From: a virus
Lineage: Duplodnaviria > Caudoviricetes
Strand: one strand, 5' to 3'
Virus record (IMG/VR): IMGVR_UViG_2907128583_000005
Coordinates: 96,001 to 160,000 of that record
DNA length: 64,000 bases
Positions 25,131-30,952 of the stretch are shown piece after piece; position 1 is the first letter of the stretch, and every line of letters starts with the position of its first letter. The position numbers were made by a program, and so were the translations under genes. The notes beneath the pieces were generated by a model. The model did no database searches and was not told the origin of the DNA. It was given only the letters and a program-made list of their open reading frames with translations.

Positions 25131-25204
25131 TTGTTCATTGCCTTTTGGTAACAGTCTATCTTGATAAAAGTATTCTTTTATGACGTCGATTACCTTGCTA
25201 ATTA

Positions 25205-25250
25205 AATATAACACGCTTACTCATTATAGTCAATGTATTTCATTATTTTT
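25205..25250 (-). promoter_or_regulatory. SigA promoter TTGACT-N17-(TG)TATATT with operator-like motif; drives tRNA and recombination block
   Basis: -35 at 25228-25233, -10 at 25205-25210, motif at 25239. Confidence 0.7.
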
Positions 25251-25333
25251 AATTGTATAATCATTATACATTTTTATTTCTAGCTATAAAGTATGTAATC
25301 AGCCGAACCATACGCTCGGCAATGGCTATGCAA

Positions 25334-25708
25334 CTAAGACAAGGCTAAGTGTAGCAAATTTGAGTATTTATTTTTTTCATACAAGCTATATAATGTTTCT
25401 GGATCTGTTACTTTTAATCTAGCTAACTTAAAACCATCAACTTTTTCTTGACATAATCTCTCAAGTGCCATGATATTATTATCATTATAATCAACAATAA
25501 ACTCACTCTTGTCCTTATATCCTTCTTCATTGATCAACTGTTTTCTTTTTTCTGAGAGATAAATATATTCAGAGCCAGGATTACCATTGCAAAATAAATA
25601 CATTTTTTGTCTGTCAGAGTCACTTCTCAAAAGGAACTCAATTTTTTTAATTATTATTGTGGCGCTTTTAGGTATATCAAGCCGATAAATTAGTTCGTCT
25701 TGCTGCAT
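25334..25708 (-). CDS. Hypothetical protein downstream of LexA and Spo0A boxes
   Basis: AAGGAG RBS. Confidence 0.7.
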   Translation of the reverse strand: MQQDELIYRLDIPKSATIIIKKIEFLLRSDSDRQKMYLFCNGNPGSEYIYLSEKRKQLINEEGYKDKSEFIVDYNDNNIMALERLCQEKVDGFKLARLKVTDPETLYSLYEKNKYSNLLHLALS

Positions 25709-25724
25709 AGCATTATCTCCTTGC

Positions 25725-25920
25725 TGTCGAATTCTATACTTTTATTATACGAGATTACTATAATTAGGCAACAACTTTACACACCATGTCTAAATATATT
25801 GACTTAATCAATATACTGGAAAAACGTCCATATAGTGTGTCACTTTTTGTCGAATCGTTTTATTCAGGAACTTATGTTCGTATTTATTTTGATTATACTA
25901 CTGCCAAAAGGCATAAGCAA
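25725..25920 (-). promoter_or_regulatory. Promoter TTGCTT-N17-TATAAT (25892-25920), LexA box (25868-25879) and two Spo0A boxes (25725, 25848)
   Basis: GAAC-ttat-GTTC; TGTCGAA twice. Confidence 0.6.
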
Positions 25921-25940
25921 CATAAATCCAAAAATAACTC

Positions 25941-26354
25941 TTATTTTTTATTGTTTCTTAATTTTTGTAGCATTTTTTTCACATTGGTTAAATGTACCGC
26001 AGCTATCTCTACAAAGCTTTTTTTGTTTTTATCAAAGTATATCTCATATACCTTTTCATCAATTTCATCAATTTTAGTAACGTCAGCCATGCTCCCTCTA
26101 CCTACTCTTACGAAGCCTTCAATATTCTCAAATAAACGCATCGTCTGTTCCGTTCTTGTTTCATCGATATACTCGCCCATATCTGTTATGTATACAATTC
26201 TTGTTTGCCCAGTTCTTCCACTTTTCTTTTCAGTTCTAAATCCTTGAATTTCAGATACTGGCAGCATAATTGCTACTTCGTCTATTTTGTCACCTATCTT
26301 TTTAACTACTTTTATAGTATCCGTTGATTTCAATTTTTTCACCTCATAATTCAT
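25941..26354 (-). CDS. LytTR-domain-only transcriptional regulator (no receiver domain)
   Basis: GFVRVGRGSMADVTKIDEID matches the LytTR F-x-R-x-x-R-x-x-x-N/D pattern; located in agr operon. Confidence 0.75.
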   Translation of the reverse strand: MNYEVKKLKSTDTIKVVKKIGDKIDEVAIMLPVSEIQGFRTEKKSGRTGQTRIVYITDMGEYIDETRTEQTMRLFENIEGFVRVGRGSMADVTKIDEIDEKVYEIYFDKNKKSFVEIAAVHLTNVKKMLQKLRNNKK

Positions 26355-26394
26355 TTGGTGTCTCGCCTCCCAAAAGAAGAACGAGACACCAAAT
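26353..26394 (-). promoter_or_regulatory. 13-bp perfect hairpin enclosing the lytTR RBS and start codon
   Basis: ATTTGGTGTCTCG...GGGAGG-CGAGACACCAAAT(G). Confidence 0.75.
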
Positions 26395-26397
26395 ATC

Positions 26398-26520
26398 TTA
26401 TTTCAATTCTTCTGGCACTGCTTCTCCATGGATCAACGTCCAACTAGCAGTGCTTACTACTGTTACAGCCAGCAGAGAGCAAAAACTACCAACAATCAGC
26501 ATAAGTTTGTTCAATTTCAT
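26398..26520 (-). CDS. agrD: AgrD-like cyclic lactone autoinducer propeptide (40 aa, not in ORF track)
   Basis: MKLNKLMLIVGSFCSLLAVTVVSTASWTLIHGEAVPEELK; GGAGGTG RBS; ATGA overlap with agrB; A-S-x4-H-x3-VPEEL tail. Confidence 0.9.
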   Translation of the reverse strand: MKLNKLMLIVGSFCSLLAVTVVSTASWTLIHGEAVPEELK

Positions 26521-27053
26521 ACCTTTTCACCTCCTCTCAAGCGTATCAAGAGGAGACTTTGTACTAAAGCTGCTAAATTCAAAACTGGAATATTAATCGT
26601 ATATATTAGCGTAACTAATATTAAAGATATAATTTTAAACCATTTAAAATTTTTTGGTTTCACTCTTGTTTGCTGTTCGATCTTACTTGGTGCATACAAC
26701 ATTACTAATATTATACTCGCTAGGTACATAGCGAAAGAATAATTATCGAAATAATTGCCACACAATGCAATTAAAATTATAACAAGAGATGAAAAAACTA
26801 TACACATTTCTGCTGATTTAAAATGAAACCCACCTGAAAACATTCTTACTGATGAAAAACCAATTAGTGCAAGTATTGCTTCTTTGGTAATCCCCAGCAA
26901 CATTGATGCTATTAAAACAATAAATATTGGAATGGTATTCGATATAATAAATTTAATTGTATACCTTACTATTTGTTGTGACGGTAATTCATCAGGATAT
27001 TTCCTTTTAGCTGCAATACTCCATTTATCAGCCAACTGATTAATCATATTCAT
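26517..27053 (-). CDS. agrB: AgrB accessory gene regulator B peptidase
   Basis: RMFSGGFHFKSAEMC (R-x-x-x-GG-x-H...C catalytic motif), LYAP, multiple TMs. Confidence 0.92.
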   Translation of the reverse strand: MNMINQLADKWSIAAKRKYPDELPSQQIVRYTIKFIISNTIPIFIVLIASMLLGITKEAILALIGFSSVRMFSGGFHFKSAEMCIVFSSLVIILIALCGNYFDNYSFAMYLASIILVMLYAPSKIEQQTRVKPKNFKWFKIISLILVTLIYTINIPVLNLAALVQSLLLIRLRGGEKV

Positions 27054-27681
27054 TTTTAATTTCCTTTCTTCTTTCTATAAAAATCAGTAAGACAAATATT
27101 ATTATCCAAAAAACTACGCTAATAGTCATATTATCGAAAGTTGGCTTTGTCATTACAGACACTCCGATCAGAGAAATAATGAATAATACAACATTAGAGA
27201 CATTAATTTTGAATTTCAAAGTATATTGATACGGCAGTGTTGTAAAGAAAACAGATCGTTTTCTTAATGCAAGGCTTATTAAGATCATTGTTGAGTCACC
27301 TAAAAATTGAATCAACGTTCCATAATCTTTTGTTGTTGTAAAAAAATCAATTTTTAGTGTTAATGCGAGTATGACAGCAGTTAAAGTTTGTAAAATCATC
27401 TGCACTAAGAAACTAATTCCCGATATTCTCAGTGATGAAAGAGGGGATAACTTAAATAAAATTACAAGAAAAAGAATCATGCATATAAGGTTTGTCACGG
27501 GAGCAATCCTATTCGGAAAACCATATTCCATATATAAGTAGGAACCCACCGAAATACACAGGCTTGAAACGATAAATTGTATCCAATAATCTCTTATTTT
27601 TACCGAATACATACCAAATCCAAAAATAAAAATCGCCATTCCATCCAACATTGAGAATATTATGTATTTAGCTGTTTCCAT
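27040..27681 (-). CDS. Polytopic membrane protein, AgrC-sensor-like but without kinase domain
   Basis: About 6-7 TM helices; no H-box or ATPase domain; first gene of agr operon; start METAK with GAGGG RBS. Confidence 0.7.
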   Translation of the reverse strand: METAKYIIFSMLDGMAIFIFGFGMYSVKIRDYWIQFIVSSLCISVGSYLYMEYGFPNRIAPVTNLICMILFLVILFKLSPLSSLRISGISFLVQMILQTLTAVILALTLKIDFFTTTKDYGTLIQFLGDSTMILISLALRKRSVFFTTLPYQYTLKFKINVSNVVLFIISLIGVSVMTKPTFDNMTISVVFWIIIFVLLIFIERRKEIKNEYD

Positions 27682-27728
27682 GTTTGCCCTCACGTTCTTA
27701 TAATTAAATATAATGAATTTATAATGTA

Positions 27729-27757
27729 AATATATCATGCGTTTATGTTGATGTCAA
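27729..27757 (-). promoter_or_regulatory. SigA promoter of the agr-like operon, TTGACA-N17-(TG)TATATT
   Basis: -35 at 27752-27757, -10 at 27729-27734. Confidence 0.7.
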
Positions 27758-27794
27758 CACAATTTTCCATAAAAAAAAGTAGAATAAGAAATAC

Positions 27795-28772
27795 TTATTC
27801 TACTTCAGGATAAACTCTTTTTATGGTTTCTTCATTGAGGAAATCTTGAGTATACATTGTACTGTTGATTATACCACCATCACGCAAACCAACATTAAAT
27901 TGTTTACATATCTTATGAATATCTGAACGATCTAAAGATTTTTTGTTATCACGAAGGTATTCTATTCTTGCCATTTCTAACATGCCTGAATTTCTTATAT
28001 CGATTGGAGATAAACTTGGCCTATTCAGTTTTTCACCAAACTTTGTAACAACAAATGTTATTAATGACTGTTTAACTTCTTCTCCTCTCGTGCTCTTTAT
28101 TATATATTCATTGTCTTTTAATTTGGAAGTATCTTTTCTTTTGCTACCTTCACCAAAATTGGATTTGTACACTTCTTCTTTATCGGCTGCTAAAAGAGAT
28201 TTAATTAAATATTCACTAACAATAATTTCTCTTTCTGTTGTTTCATAGCGGTCTACATTTGTTAATTTTATTTTATTATTAGCCTTATCGATATTTTCCA
28301 CTTTTAAGGTTCTTATTTCAGAACTGTTTCTACCCAGAATACCTTCAAATATTGATAGAATTATCGCTATATCTCTATAACTATCCAATTCAGATAAAGC
28401 ATCGTCTAAATGCTCTTTTTTAATTAATGTTTGTTGTGGTACAAATTTTTCAAAGTCGCTTTTCCCTTTCATTGCTGCAAGTGGATTCATTTTATCTTTT
28501 CTAAGCCCTTGCGCACTTGCCCACTCAACGTATTTCCTGAGAATTGACCCATAATTCATTGCACTACTTAACTTTGTTGGAGCTAGAAGATAAATAACCT
28601 CTTCAAATTCACTCAATGTAAAATCATAAAGGTCTTTTTCCAATCTCATTTCCACTCTGCTTGCACGTTTTAATTTTCCTTCGTAGTTTTTACGAGTGTT
28701 TTCTCTAAATTCACTTAAAAATCTTTTTTTGATCTCTGGATTATATAGGCTATCCCCATATATATTATTCAA
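27795..28772 (-). CDS. YopR/MrpR (SroF)-like master repressor with degenerate tyrosine-recombinase fold
   Basis: YNPEIKKRFL, EKDLYDF, IFEGI.G..SEIRTL, IRNSGM; 325 aa; downstream of a YopQ-like gene as in SPbeta. Confidence 0.8.
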   Translation of the reverse strand: MNNIYGDSLYNPEIKKRFLSEFRENTRKNYEGKLKRASRVEMRLEKDLYDFTLSEFEEVIYLLAPTKLSSAMNYGSILRKYVEWASAQGLRKDKMNPLAAMKGKSDFEKFVPQQTLIKKEHLDDALSELDSYRDIAIILSIFEGILGRNSSEIRTLKVENIDKANNKIKLTNVDRYETTEREIIVSEYLIKSLLAADKEEVYKSNFGEGSKRKDTSKLKDNEYIIKSTRGEEVKQSLITFVVTKFGEKLNRPSLSPIDIRNSGMLEMARIEYLRDNKKSLDRSDIHKICKQFNVGLRDGGIINSTMYTQDFLNEETIKRVYPEVE

Positions 28773-28776
28773 TTTG

Positions 28777-30111
28777 TTACACCTCTTTGATTATATTTTC
28801 AAAATGTTTTAGTATGTCCCCTTGAATGCGAGTAGACGAATAAGCTCTTTTAGCCTCAAATAAATCTATAAGTGTTTTATCGTTACTTAAATCAAGACTA
28901 TCAATTATTTTATTTAACTCCTGTGGATTAATGCTTTGATTATCTTTTTGATACATTTTATAAGCGATCACTGTATATCCAAAAAACATTAAAGGGTGAT
29001 TTATATAGCTCTTATCATACTTTTCTCTATTTTCCAAAAAAGCATCCACATACAAACTTATCAAAATACCAAAATATTTCACAAGATAGTGAGATACATT
29101 TTGATAATCAAGATACGTCTGAGGATTAAATGTTCTTTCAATCGCTAAATTTAAGATACTGAAAGTTGTCAATTGCCCAACAGCAGTATTTGGCTTAGTT
29201 GTAGAGGCAATTCGAATACCTTTAAGTTCGCTGTCTTGGTTGGTTTGTAATTCTTTTACAACAGAAGCAGATCGCCCAGTAGCAGAAAGTTCTTTCTTTC
29301 TGTCTTTATTTAAAATGTTGATTGTATTTATCTGACCAAAAAATTTAGAGGCAGTTTGCTGATCATAAGTTCTAATCGATAGTTCAAAATTAAAATTTAA
29401 ATCATTTTTCTCATTCATTGCTTTGACAGTAGCCTGCAAACGGTGAAAACCATCCAATATACTTATAGTAGCATCTTTGTTTATAATTAATTGTCCAAAC
29501 TCGTCTTCTTTCGGAATCCAAGTTACTGGTTCTGATTCAAAGTTATAAACGTTAAATCTTATGGTATCAGTTAAATAGTCATTCGCAACCAGTTTATTAG
29601 CAATAGTTCTCACGGAAGACTGATTTACAATAGGCGTTTCAATAATTCCATCGTTGCGATTGCCTTTATATTTTAATCCTCTTTGAGACCTTGGATCGTA
29701 TATTATCATCTGCGATTCAAACATCTTATTTAGAAGCTTGGCTGATATTTTTGAAGAATATGCTTTTTCGTCAATTTGTATTGCATTAAAAGTCAAAGGT
29801 AGACTTATTGTTTCACTAACAAATTCTGATGCTACACTTTCTTTTGCTTCTCTAATTTCAGTCGCTGTAAAATGTTCAAGTGGATCTATACCACCAAAAA
29901 CACTATTAATGCACTCAGTAAAGACACATAATAAGGGTAGACTAACCTCTTCAATGCTTTTCTTTTTTAAAATAATCTCGTTTAATGTTCCATAGGGAAC
30001 TCCTAGTGAGTTTAATCTGTCATTTACACTAAGTATCTTCTTTCTACTTGTCTTATGTTCATCAATTATCTCAGTAATTATCTTTTCTACTTCTCTACGG
30101 TCAGTTTTCAA
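28777..30111 (-). CDS. YopQ-like DndB/DGQHR-domain protein
   Basis: SQRG, ILDGFHR, FFGQIN motifs. Confidence 0.8.
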   Translation of the reverse strand: MKTDRREVEKIITEIIDEHKTSRKKILSVNDRLNSLGVPYGTLNEIILKKKSIEEVSLPLLCVFTECINSVFGGIDPLEHFTATEIREAKESVASEFVSETISLPLTFNAIQIDEKAYSSKISAKLLNKMFESQMIIYDPRSQRGLKYKGNRNDGIIETPIVNQSSVRTIANKLVANDYLTDTIRFNVYNFESEPVTWIPKEDEFGQLIINKDATISILDGFHRLQATVKAMNEKNDLNFNFELSIRTYDQQTASKFFGQINTINILNKDRKKELSATGRSASVVKELQTNQDSELKGIRIASTTKPNTAVGQLTTFSILNLAIERTFNPQTYLDYQNVSHYLVKYFGILISLYVDAFLENREKYDKSYINHPLMFFGYTVIAYKMYQKDNQSINPQELNKIIDSLDLSNDKTLIDLFEAKRAYSSTRIQGDILKHFENIIKEV

Positions 30112-30169
30112 ATGTGATACACTCCTTTATTAAAGAATTATAACACATAAATATAATAAATATACACGA

Positions 30170-30952
30170 TCATTTTTTCCTAAGTTTATCTAACAAATTG
30201 TGATTATTACCTTCCAAAACCAGAACTTTAGTCACATCTTTTAAGTCTTTTGTATTCATTAATTCGATTTTATTTAGAATTTCATTCTTTATTTTATTCT
30301 CACAAGTGATGCAGAATTTCTTTCCTTCAATAAAAAGAAACTGCGAATAACATCTTTCGTATTCACATACTTTTTCCCCAACTTTCTTTGGAGAAAATTC
30401 TGCTTTTTTCATTGCTTCTGTCCAACTCAACCCCTTATTGTTCATTGCACTAGAAGATGGTTTTAGTTTCAAACTATCATATTCTACTTTTGTTGGAATG
30501 TAACCTATTTTTTTAATGGAATTTTTTAAATCAACAATCATTGATTCAATGCTTGTATATTTGTTTTTCAAATTTACTTCAGCAGCTTTGCATATTTTCT
30601 CTATTCCAAAGTGGTCAGATATATACTCCCAAGCAGGCTCAAAATTACCAGCTTCATAATCCACTTTATCTACATACCCATTTAATACATTTAATAATTT
30701 GAAATTACTGATTGCTTTTATTCTGTTTTTTTCTAATAAGTATTCTTCTTTTGTTGGAATACCAGCTTTTTTCAAGAAATCTTTAAAATTTGTTTTAGCT
30801 TTTCTATTGTAGGTATCCCATGTAGTAGTTTTTTCTTTGTTTCTATAAAAATCAAAGAGTTCTACTGTGAGGTATCCTCCTGCTTGCTTTGCCGCCAACT
30901 TTGCTTCATTTATATATTTATTTTCAAGCTCCATATTCATGTTACAATTCAC
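30170..30952 (-). CDS. Homing-endonuclease-associated repeat DNA-binding protein
   Basis: GYIPTKVEY...SWTEAMKKAEF-type repeats; C-terminal Cys cluster. Confidence 0.55.
   Translation of the reverse strand: MNCNMNMELENKYINEAKLAAKQAGGYLTVELFDFYRNKEKTTTWDTYNRKAKTNFKDFLKKAGIPTKEEYLLEKNRIKAISNFKLLNVLNGYVDKVDYEAGNFEPAWEYISDHFGIEKICKAAEVNLKNKYTSIESMIVDLKNSIKKIGYIPTKVEYDSLKLKPSSSAMNNKGLSWTEAMKKAEFSPKKVGEKVCEYERCYSQFLFIEGKKFCITCENKIKNEILNKIELMNTKDLKDVTKVLVLEGNNHNLLDKLRKK

Follow-up and report, generated by a model that had tools for sequence, protein, structure and literature searches.

We identified a four-gene, agr-like cassette in a 64,000-nucleotide stretch of viral DNA (the window), which covers positions 96,001 to 160,000 of the IMG/VR record IMGVR_UViG_2907128583_000005. 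The stretch is part of a 218-kb provirus record of an SPbeta-like prophage, and the names of near-identical proteins in public records point to the Paenibacillus polymyxa group as the host. The cassette encodes a membrane protein (hereafter the sensor), AgrB, AgrD and a small LytTR protein. As judged by profile comparisons, the membrane protein is a homologue of the sensor domain of proteins in the AgrC position, some of which are true kinases, and the LytTR protein is an AgrA-type DNA-binding domain without a receiver. The cassette is therefore an agr system minus the kinase half of the receptor and the receiver half of the regulator. At a little better than even, we favor the interpretation that the phage carries a copy of an agr module devoid of the phosphorelay, in which the sensor would signal directly to the LytTR protein. 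The cassette has the following components:

27040..27681, minus strand: seven-helix membrane protein (sensor), 213 amino acids; ATG at 27681, ribosome-binding site GAGGG
26517..27053, minus strand: AgrB peptidase/cyclase; Pfam AgrB, 1.7e-23; start overlaps the sensor stop
26398..26520, minus strand: AgrD precursor, 40 amino acids; ATG overlaps the agrB stop (ATGA), behind GGAGGTG
26352..26395, minus strand: stem-loop between agrD and the LytTR gene; -28.1 kcal/mol, z -5.3, no U tract
25941..26354, minus strand: LytTR-only protein; 137 amino acids from the ATG, 130 amino acids from the TTG at 26333

All four genes of the original prediction, which had been made from the sequence alone, were recovered in place as open reading frames (ORFs) on the minus strand. 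The genes are tightly packed, with starts and stops overlapping at the first two junctions (sensor-agrB and agrB-agrD).

The membrane protein as an AgrC-type sensor domain

The membrane protein, for which public gene calls likewise use the ATG at 27681, matched no family in Pfam or NCBIfam. An AlphaFold2 model based on a 62-sequence alignment contains eight helices, with a mean predicted local distance difference test (pLDDT) score of 92. We read this model as seven membrane spans, with the short helix 113-119 merged with the next one, which agrees with the six to seven spans proposed earlier. According to the positive-inside rule, the strongly basic loop 142-160 is expected to face the cytoplasm, as is the C-terminal tail, which is charged. 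The protein ends about 10 residues past the last helix and has no DHp or ATPase part. As had been predicted, no kinase and no receiver domain were identified in the module in the Pfam and NCBIfam scans, and HATPase_c_5 gave no match anywhere in the 218-kb provirus record.

A HMMER search with the eight closest sequences against 1.84 billion representatives retrieved 65 proteins, all of which were 121-229 amino acids long, and there is thus no fused form among the near relatives. Longer proteins were recovered from the Bacilli sample, where the 62-sequence profile gave matches of 38.8-66.5 bits that extended over 3-205 of its 214 positions and were located in ORFs of 418-454 amino acids. All nine long proteins that were fetched have an N-terminal sensor domain. 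In seven, the same ORF also matches an AgrC-type C-terminal model constructed in this study, and eight adjoin AgrB. The Pfam domains HATPase_c and HATPase_c_5 were found in two of the nine, and SPOB_a also in L109. The order of genes in the operons of the long proteins, agrC-agrB-agrD-agrA, is the same as that of sensor, AgrB, AgrD and LytTR here.

In comparisons with hhalign, the short sensor family matched the AgrC-position proteins at 99.4% (E 1.7e-21), in an alignment of 152 columns starting from residue 1, and the phage clade alone gave 97.6% (E 2.9e-12), as compared to 0.3% for an AgrB alignment that served as a multi-helix control. Matches to generic Paenibacillus AgrC kinases were weak, 15-45% in one comparison and 2.2% in another. 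The suggestion that the membrane protein acts as a receptor, which had been part of the original prediction, is now backed by the homology to AgrC-type sensor domains. In a quick tree of 76 sensor domains, for which the support values are from the Shimodaira-Hasegawa-like approximate likelihood ratio test (SH-aLRT) only and which has no reliable root, a single change suffices between the fused and the short states (support 89); no direction of events is claimed.

Searches for a solved fold gave no match: neither a Foldseek search of the sensor model against PDB, at E 0.001 or better, nor a search of the sensor profile against the PDB sequences retrieved a hit. Only unnamed Bacillota clusters were found in the ESM Atlas, with nothing among the named clusters. 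Pex3, which came up as a candidate fold match in a wide VIA-align search (best Z 7.8), was rejected, as this score is within the noise for helical bundles. An open frame of 426 amino acids in G017 was also considered as a fusion and dismissed; it represents an upstream open frame in DNA rich in guanine plus cytosine (GC), and the cassette in G017 consists of the ordinary four genes.

Four AgrC-position proteins of 406-450 amino acids carry the sensor domain (L103:2398-3645, L104:2133-3371, L105:2249-3598, L106:2386-3603) and have no Pfam HATPase match; their H-box His is replaced (INRD, ITKD or SIRE, versus IKHD) and they lack the G-box stretch. In three of these loci, a full Response_reg and LytTR regulator still comes next. 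As far as their sequences tell, these proteins are possible pseudokinase intermediates toward the kinase-free form, and such relatives, with a kinase half that looks degenerate and with a full response regulator, offer a comparative handle on the evolution of the cassette. A separate ORF of 269-270 amino acids that matches the AgrC-type C-terminal model was observed in two further loci (L107:1149-1958 and L111:3534-4346), directly upstream of a 421-amino acid sensor-bearing protein without a Pfam kinase match, which may represent a split sensor-kinase arrangement.

The LytTR-only regulator

The LytTR protein scored 22.9 bits against the Pfam LytTR model, for which the cut-off is 22.6, and had no match to Response_reg in the Pfam scan. 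All 21 aligned small proteins from the equivalent position of the cassette match Pfam LytTR (best, 2.1e-11). A profile of these 21 homologues covered the full DNA-binding domain of AgrA (3bs1) at 3.9e-8; the match to ComE was 2.1e-5. The receiver is absent here, whereas the kinase-bearing relatives have regulators of 240-245 amino acids with both Response_reg and LytTR, three of which were identified by Pfam after agrD in the operons of the long proteins.

The identity of this ORF is as originally predicted, and its start is corrected here. In the relatives, the ribosome-binding site GAGGTG and the start codon come after the hairpin between agrD and the LytTR gene, and the start is therefore most likely the TTG at 26333, behind GAGGTG, rather than the ATG inside the stem. 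The hairpin is present in all six prophage versions that were folded (the window, L005, L007, L008, L010 and L074), and the five others have it at an equal position with differing sequence (z -3.1 to -5.6). By appearance, it would act in processing, stability or attenuation and not as a mask of the ribosome-binding site.

One chromosomal cassette (L021:2804-3526) ends in a 240-amino acid protein with two tandem LytTR domains. The small LytTR protein is named "peptidase" in the record of the Brevibacillus phage Abouo (L001, gp47) and in PHROGs (phrog_15081), a name that looks wrong for the phage protein given the LytTR matches.

AgrB, AgrD and the predicted peptide

AgrB scored 83.4 bits against the Pfam AgrB model (cut-off 23) and matched phrog_10353 at 1e-24. 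It contains an H-x6-C pair (GGFHFKSAEMC), with the His and Cys seven residues apart, in a spacing rule that is taken from AgrB of Staphylococcus aureus. The AgrD precursor ends in a C-terminal tail of the PxEL type, VPEELK, and a small ORF matching an AgrD model built in this study occupies the AgrD position in 35 of 36 related loci. Its place after agrB, the translational coupling to it, the tail and the register of the Ser agree with an AgrD and are common to 34 of 35 relatives.

The ring was predicted as the five residues whose last one precedes the Pro of the PxEL tail by five positions, a register derived from S. aureus AgrD. With this rule, Ser is the first residue in 34 of the 35 related precursors and Cys in one; the 35 include six prophage copies and eight near-identical SYVYV copies, and the number of independent observations is correspondingly lower. 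The predicted ring in the window is SWTLI, and the Ser-lactone register put forward earlier fits this positional rule, such that the mature peptide would be a cyclic SWTLI lactone. The rings of other prophages are SWTLI, SWTLV or SWTIL, and that of L083 is SAALI. The ring in L074 is also SWTLI, and the L074 sensor closely resembles the family representative P0010, which is 31% identical to the sensor in the window. Chromosomal cassettes have similar predicted rings, such as SWLYI, SWTFV, SWGWV and SWAYI.

Genomic setting and promoter region

On the minus strand, the cassette follows an mrpR-like gene, a terminator and a SigA-type promoter, with these neighboring features:

28777..30111, minus strand: YopQ-like DndB/DGQHR protein; Pfam DndB, 4.1e-12; phrog_5732, 8.1e-85
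27795..28772, minus strand: MrpR/YopR-like master repressor; Pfam MrpR_N_CB, 1.2e-22, and MrpR_C_cat, 2.3e-11
27776..27806, minus strand: intrinsic terminator directly past the mrpR stop; 13-pair stem, then a T run
27729..27757, minus strand: SigA-type promoter TTGACA-17-TATATT with extended -10 TG; score 11/12
27707..27717, minus strand: TTCATTATATT box, about 12 nucleotides downstream of the -10; copy of the TTCATTATWTT motif

The features of the SPbeta-type MrpR module are present, with the N-terminal core-binding and the C-terminal catalytic-like domains of MrpR and a DndB-like YopQ upstream; on TIGR03187, the YopQ-like protein scored 46.2 bits, below the cut-off of 58.85. The terminator is predicted to insulate the cassette from the repressor operon. 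Among 22 promoter-like sites in 25200-30300, the one in front of the cassette scores highest, and the placement of the cassette under a SigA promoter of its own, directly behind the yopQ- and yopR (mrpR)-like genes, stands as it had been described. The terminator stem arms, the TTGACA and the TG-TATATT are invariant in six related prophage loci. The GC content of the cassette is 0.31, equal to that of the rest of the phage. The GC content of the host is near 45%.

The motif TTCATTATWTT occurs in 12 exact copies in the window (11651, 25239, 27707, 38137, 43492, 48763, 50160, 52990, 56579, 59664, 59775 and 61637), as compared to 1.19 expected, and none of 100 shuffles reached 12. Eleven copies are on the plus strand; the remaining one, at the cassette promoter, is on the minus strand. 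The core of the box, TATATT, is invariant in six relatives, five of which have ATTATATT while L010 has AATATATT. We infer that the TTCATTATATT box is a candidate repressor operator. A pattern tried as a LytTR site, ATATATTTA-N13-TTATATTTA, had seven matches versus 1.78 expected, one of them exact, and was rejected; its second half is now thought to be a copy of TTCATTATWTT. The only repeat at the cassette promoter overlaps the -10 and the transcript start. Past the stop of the LytTR gene, direct repeats of 14 nucleotides (25737/25885) and of 13 nucleotides with TGTCGAA (25720/25843) were observed at 25705-25945 in the window, which look like two similar promoter units ahead of a gene for a 124-amino acid protein.

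All or part of the stretch is present in twelve sequencing runs that are recorded as RNA libraries and belong to three studies; in eight of these, half or more of its sampled words occur. In contigs of two studies, one piece from 25365/25372 to 27700/27693 covers the cassette, and mrpR and yopQ are on a separate piece that begins at 27803/27826. The contigs continue from the cassette through the gene for the 124-amino acid protein. The break between the cassette and the mrpR pieces fits the predicted terminator and promoter. No contig covers the cassette in run X1, while X4 and X5 have contigs there, and such contigs can show neither absence nor expression level.

Distribution and conservation

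The short sensor family was identified in 257 of 401 sampled Paenibacillaceae genomes (E <= 1e-5), with up to seven matches per genome, which means that the cassette was not invented by phages. In the Bacilli sample, 38 of 401 genomes had a match at 1e-8, several of which were the same Paenibacillaceae genomes. One genome, G362, has the sensor family and no HATPase_c_5 at 1e-10. Sensor, AgrB and AgrD are found together in all of the 30 best bacterial loci, with a small LytTR gene directly after them in 20. Among 66 short sensor ORFs, 65 are adjoined by AgrB; 46 are accompanied by a small LytTR gene and three by a longer LytTR-matching ORF, one of which is the tandem LytTR duplication.

Five IMG/VR proviruses display full synteny from YopQ through MrpR, sensor, AgrB, AgrD and LytTR to the 124-amino acid gene. 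An mrpR homologue is located directly upstream of the cassette in eight other loci, including the genome loci L010, L074 and L083, which with the window gives nine SPbeta-like prophage loci, across which MrpR has diverged down to 113 bits. The prophage sensors form one clade in the sensor tree, while the sensor of Abouo belongs to another phage-bearing clade along with chromosomal copies, and from this topology the SPbeta-like and Abouo phage lineages probably acquired the cassette separately. Identities between the phage sensors and the aligned non-prophage representatives of the family are 38% or lower.

For the three larger genes (sensor, AgrB and LytTR), crude ratios of non-synonymous to synonymous changes per site (pN/pS) versus L004 and L005 were 0.06-0.22. 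The AgrD protein is identical in L004-L006; the agrD gene differs from that of L005 by four synonymous and no non-synonymous changes, and from that of L004 by none at all. The cassette genes are under purifying selection.

A tblastn search of the sensor and a megablast search of the region against the phage collection gave no match, and a scan of viral contigs with the Abouo sensor recovered Abouo itself only. Of two scans of genome contigs, the first retrieved no relative and the second a single locus, L009.

Proposed mechanism and alternative explanations

In the mechanism that we propose, AgrB would cleave and cyclize the 40-amino acid AgrD, giving a secreted five-residue Ser-lactone peptide with the ring SWTLI, which would be bound outside the cell by the 213-amino acid kinase-less AgrC sensor domain. 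The cytoplasmic face of the sensor, with the basic loop 142-160 and a short charged tail, would hold or release the LytTR-only protein, which would then alter transcription from phage or host promoters. As there is no kinase and no receiver, the signal could pass from the sensor to the LytTR protein only by protein contact or indirectly, and we favor binding and release at the cytoplasmic face, on the model of LytTR systems with a membrane inhibitor. The structure of the peptide, ligand binding, the sensor-LytTR contact, the target genes and any effect on lysogeny are all putative elements of this scheme.

Several observations weigh against a signaling module of this kind. AgrD scored 16.3 bits on TIGR04223, below the cut-off of 19. 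LytTR-type direct repeats were not found upstream of the -35 here, where the mrpR terminator sits, and the best repeat in 37 loci had a mean of 6.97 of 9 versus 6.38 in shuffles, which is no clear excess. In 17 of the 66 short-sensor loci, no LytTR gene was identified within the 1.5 kb fetched; eight loci without the gene form one near-identical group. A check of co-variation between peptide and sensor showed that SWTLI is constant across prophages with sensors that are only about 31% identical, unlike staphylococcal pairs of AgrC and autoinducing peptide (AIP), which co-diversify. The RNA-library contigs indicate presence only, carry no information on strand or level or on whether there is a single transcript, and may stem from DNA in the libraries. 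Finally, the host species is reported to carry a canonical agrABCD locus (PMC13700820, in the part of the article considered here), and there may be cross-talk with it.

A more specific version of the proposed mechanism, which we put forward as a tentative possibility, is that the cassette serves as a phage density sensor for lysis-lysogeny or induction in the place of arbitrium, with the peptide acting through the sensor and the LytTR protein on the MrpR switch. This would agree with the position of the cassette directly behind mrpR in the nine loci despite the divergence of MrpR, with its retention by the integrase and repressor region in an unrelated temperate phage lineage, and with the copy of the over-represented TTCATTATWTT motif at its promoter. 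As stated in the original prediction for the window, there is no AimR-like gene; across the whole provirus record the AimR model NF038310 reached 16.7 bits, versus a cut-off of 70, on an open frame of 108 amino acids. However, this is an argument from position, and morons also adjoin lysogeny genes. None of the phage promoters has an identified LytTR site, cassettes of this type are found mostly in chromosomes and so need no phage function, and the contigs come from RNA libraries of ordinary cultures, which fit prophage expression as well as early-infection expression. Rather doubtful is the wider proposal that the phosphorylation-stripped receptor and regulator are a working peptide sensor that sets the MrpR switch instead of arbitrium, and that the phages share one SWTLI language and may overhear the SW..V/I peptides of their hosts. 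The idea of a shared language stems from the conservation of SWTLI among prophages with such divergent sensors.

It is also conceivable, but unlikely, that the phage proteins manipulate or eavesdrop on the host by interfering with its kinase-free cassettes or its AgrCA, where the peptide would cross-activate or block host receptors, the sensor would titrate host peptides, and the bare LytTR protein would compete at host LytTR sites. In favor of this, Paenibacillaceae genomes have up to seven matches of the same sensor family, with predicted rings such as SWLYI, SWTFV, SWGWV and SWAYI, close to the SWTLI of the phage, and in the host species, antibiotic production is under the control of an AIP system that has been studied (PMC12180512, sections considered). 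On the other hand, the phage clade is distinct and old, with its low identity to non-prophage representatives and its phage-like GC content, and all four parts are kept under purifying selection, which interference alone would not need. We find it highly improbable that the membrane protein is a factor for peptide maturation, export or immunity rather than a receptor and that the LytTR protein is a constitutive regulator. The 17 loci with sensor, AgrB and AgrD in which an adjacent LytTR gene is lacking would be explained in this way, and the membrane protein has no solved-fold match and belongs to no known family, but its homology to the sensor domain of the AgrC-position proteins is full-length, no protease family was detected in the Pfam and NCBIfam scans, and the gene order is that of C-B-D-A operons.

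Significance

Signaling by agr is understood as a two-component phosphorelay. The homologies described here outline a large natural family, present in 257 of the 401 Paenibacillaceae genomes and in two phage lineages, in which the peptide, the sensor and the DNA-binding domain have been kept while the phosphorylation domains are absent from both proteins. If the cassette signals, it would represent a new coupling of a membrane receptor to a LytTR regulator. It would then also give SPbeta-like phages a second means of communication by peptide, open to testing with a synthetic five-residue lactone in a soil bacterium that is non-pathogenic. It may thus provide a phosphorylation-free route for phage or host communication. 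What is new here is the homology of the membrane protein to the AgrC sensor domain, in a cassette with C-B-D-A order; the cassette as such would be a further member of a type already noted in print, with a presumed function.

Comparison with known systems

The canonical agr system (agrBDCA in S. aureus; loci in P. polymyxa) resembles the cassette in AgrB, in AgrD with its PxEL tail, in the AgrC-type sensor domain and in the AgrA-like LytTR domain. The cassette differs from it in that the sensor is devoid of the DHp and ATPase parts and the regulator of the receiver, which makes phosphotransfer impossible. In addition, the order of the cassette is sensor-B-D-regulator, the ring nucleophile is Ser and not Cys, and repeats of the AgrA type were looked for upstream of the promoter and not found. 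The AIPs of P. polymyxa have been characterized, and the receptor is not discussed in the sections of that article covered here (PMC12180512).

Phage-borne agr genes accompanied by AgrC are known from the Clostridioides difficile phage phiCDHM1, as stated in the original prediction, which left out that phage cassettes with an AgrC-like protein lacking the kinase were already in print. In passages of the phiCDHM1 paper, Hargreaves (2014; PMC3901668) noted that the membrane proteins of the phages Abouo, Davies and Emery may be AgrC homologues that lack the ATPase domain; a LytTR partner of these cassettes is not mentioned in those passages. The Brevibacillus phages Abouo and Davies have the same four genes (membrane protein, AgrB, AgrD and small LytTR protein) in the lysogeny region, but beside the integrase instead of mrpR, and they are of a 45-kb phage type as compared to the 218-kb SPbeta-like record; their AgrB proteins are 26-28% identical to AgrB in the window and their sensors belong to a different clade. 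Phage phiCDHM1 likewise carries agrB, agrD and a receptor gene, which codes for a full-length AgrC of 453 amino acids, with no regulator gene (PMC3901668, same passages), whereas the cassette is without the kinase part and has a regulator. In the literature covered, which did not include the supplementary tables of PMC12180512 and PMC3901668, no functional study of a kinase-free sensor and LytTR unit was found, and the sole mention was one paragraph in PMC3901668.

The arbitrium system (AimR-AimP-AimX) is similar as a peptide module in the lysogeny region of SPbeta-like phages, although the parts are unrelated. A 2025 review mentions, in the part considered here, that homologues of agr exist in phages, also in SPbeta-like ones (PMC11945551).

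The HdrRM and BrsRM systems of Streptococcus mutans, with which the original prediction had drawn a parallel, also encode a soluble LytTR regulator without receiver together with a membrane protein. In these systems, as described in the sections considered, the regulator gene is the first of a two-gene operon and the membrane inhibitor the second, there are no peptide genes, and 9-bp direct repeats spaced 11-13 bp apart are located about 10 bp upstream of the -35 as a hallmark (Zou et al. 2018; PMC6193735). The cassette differs in its order (membrane protein, agrB, agrD, regulator), in its peptide genes and in that the hallmark repeats were not found upstream of its -35. Moreover, its membrane protein belongs to the AgrC sensor lineage instead and has no Pfam or NCBIfam match. 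HdrRM and BrsRM provide a precedent for the control of a LytTR regulator by a membrane protein without phosphorylation.

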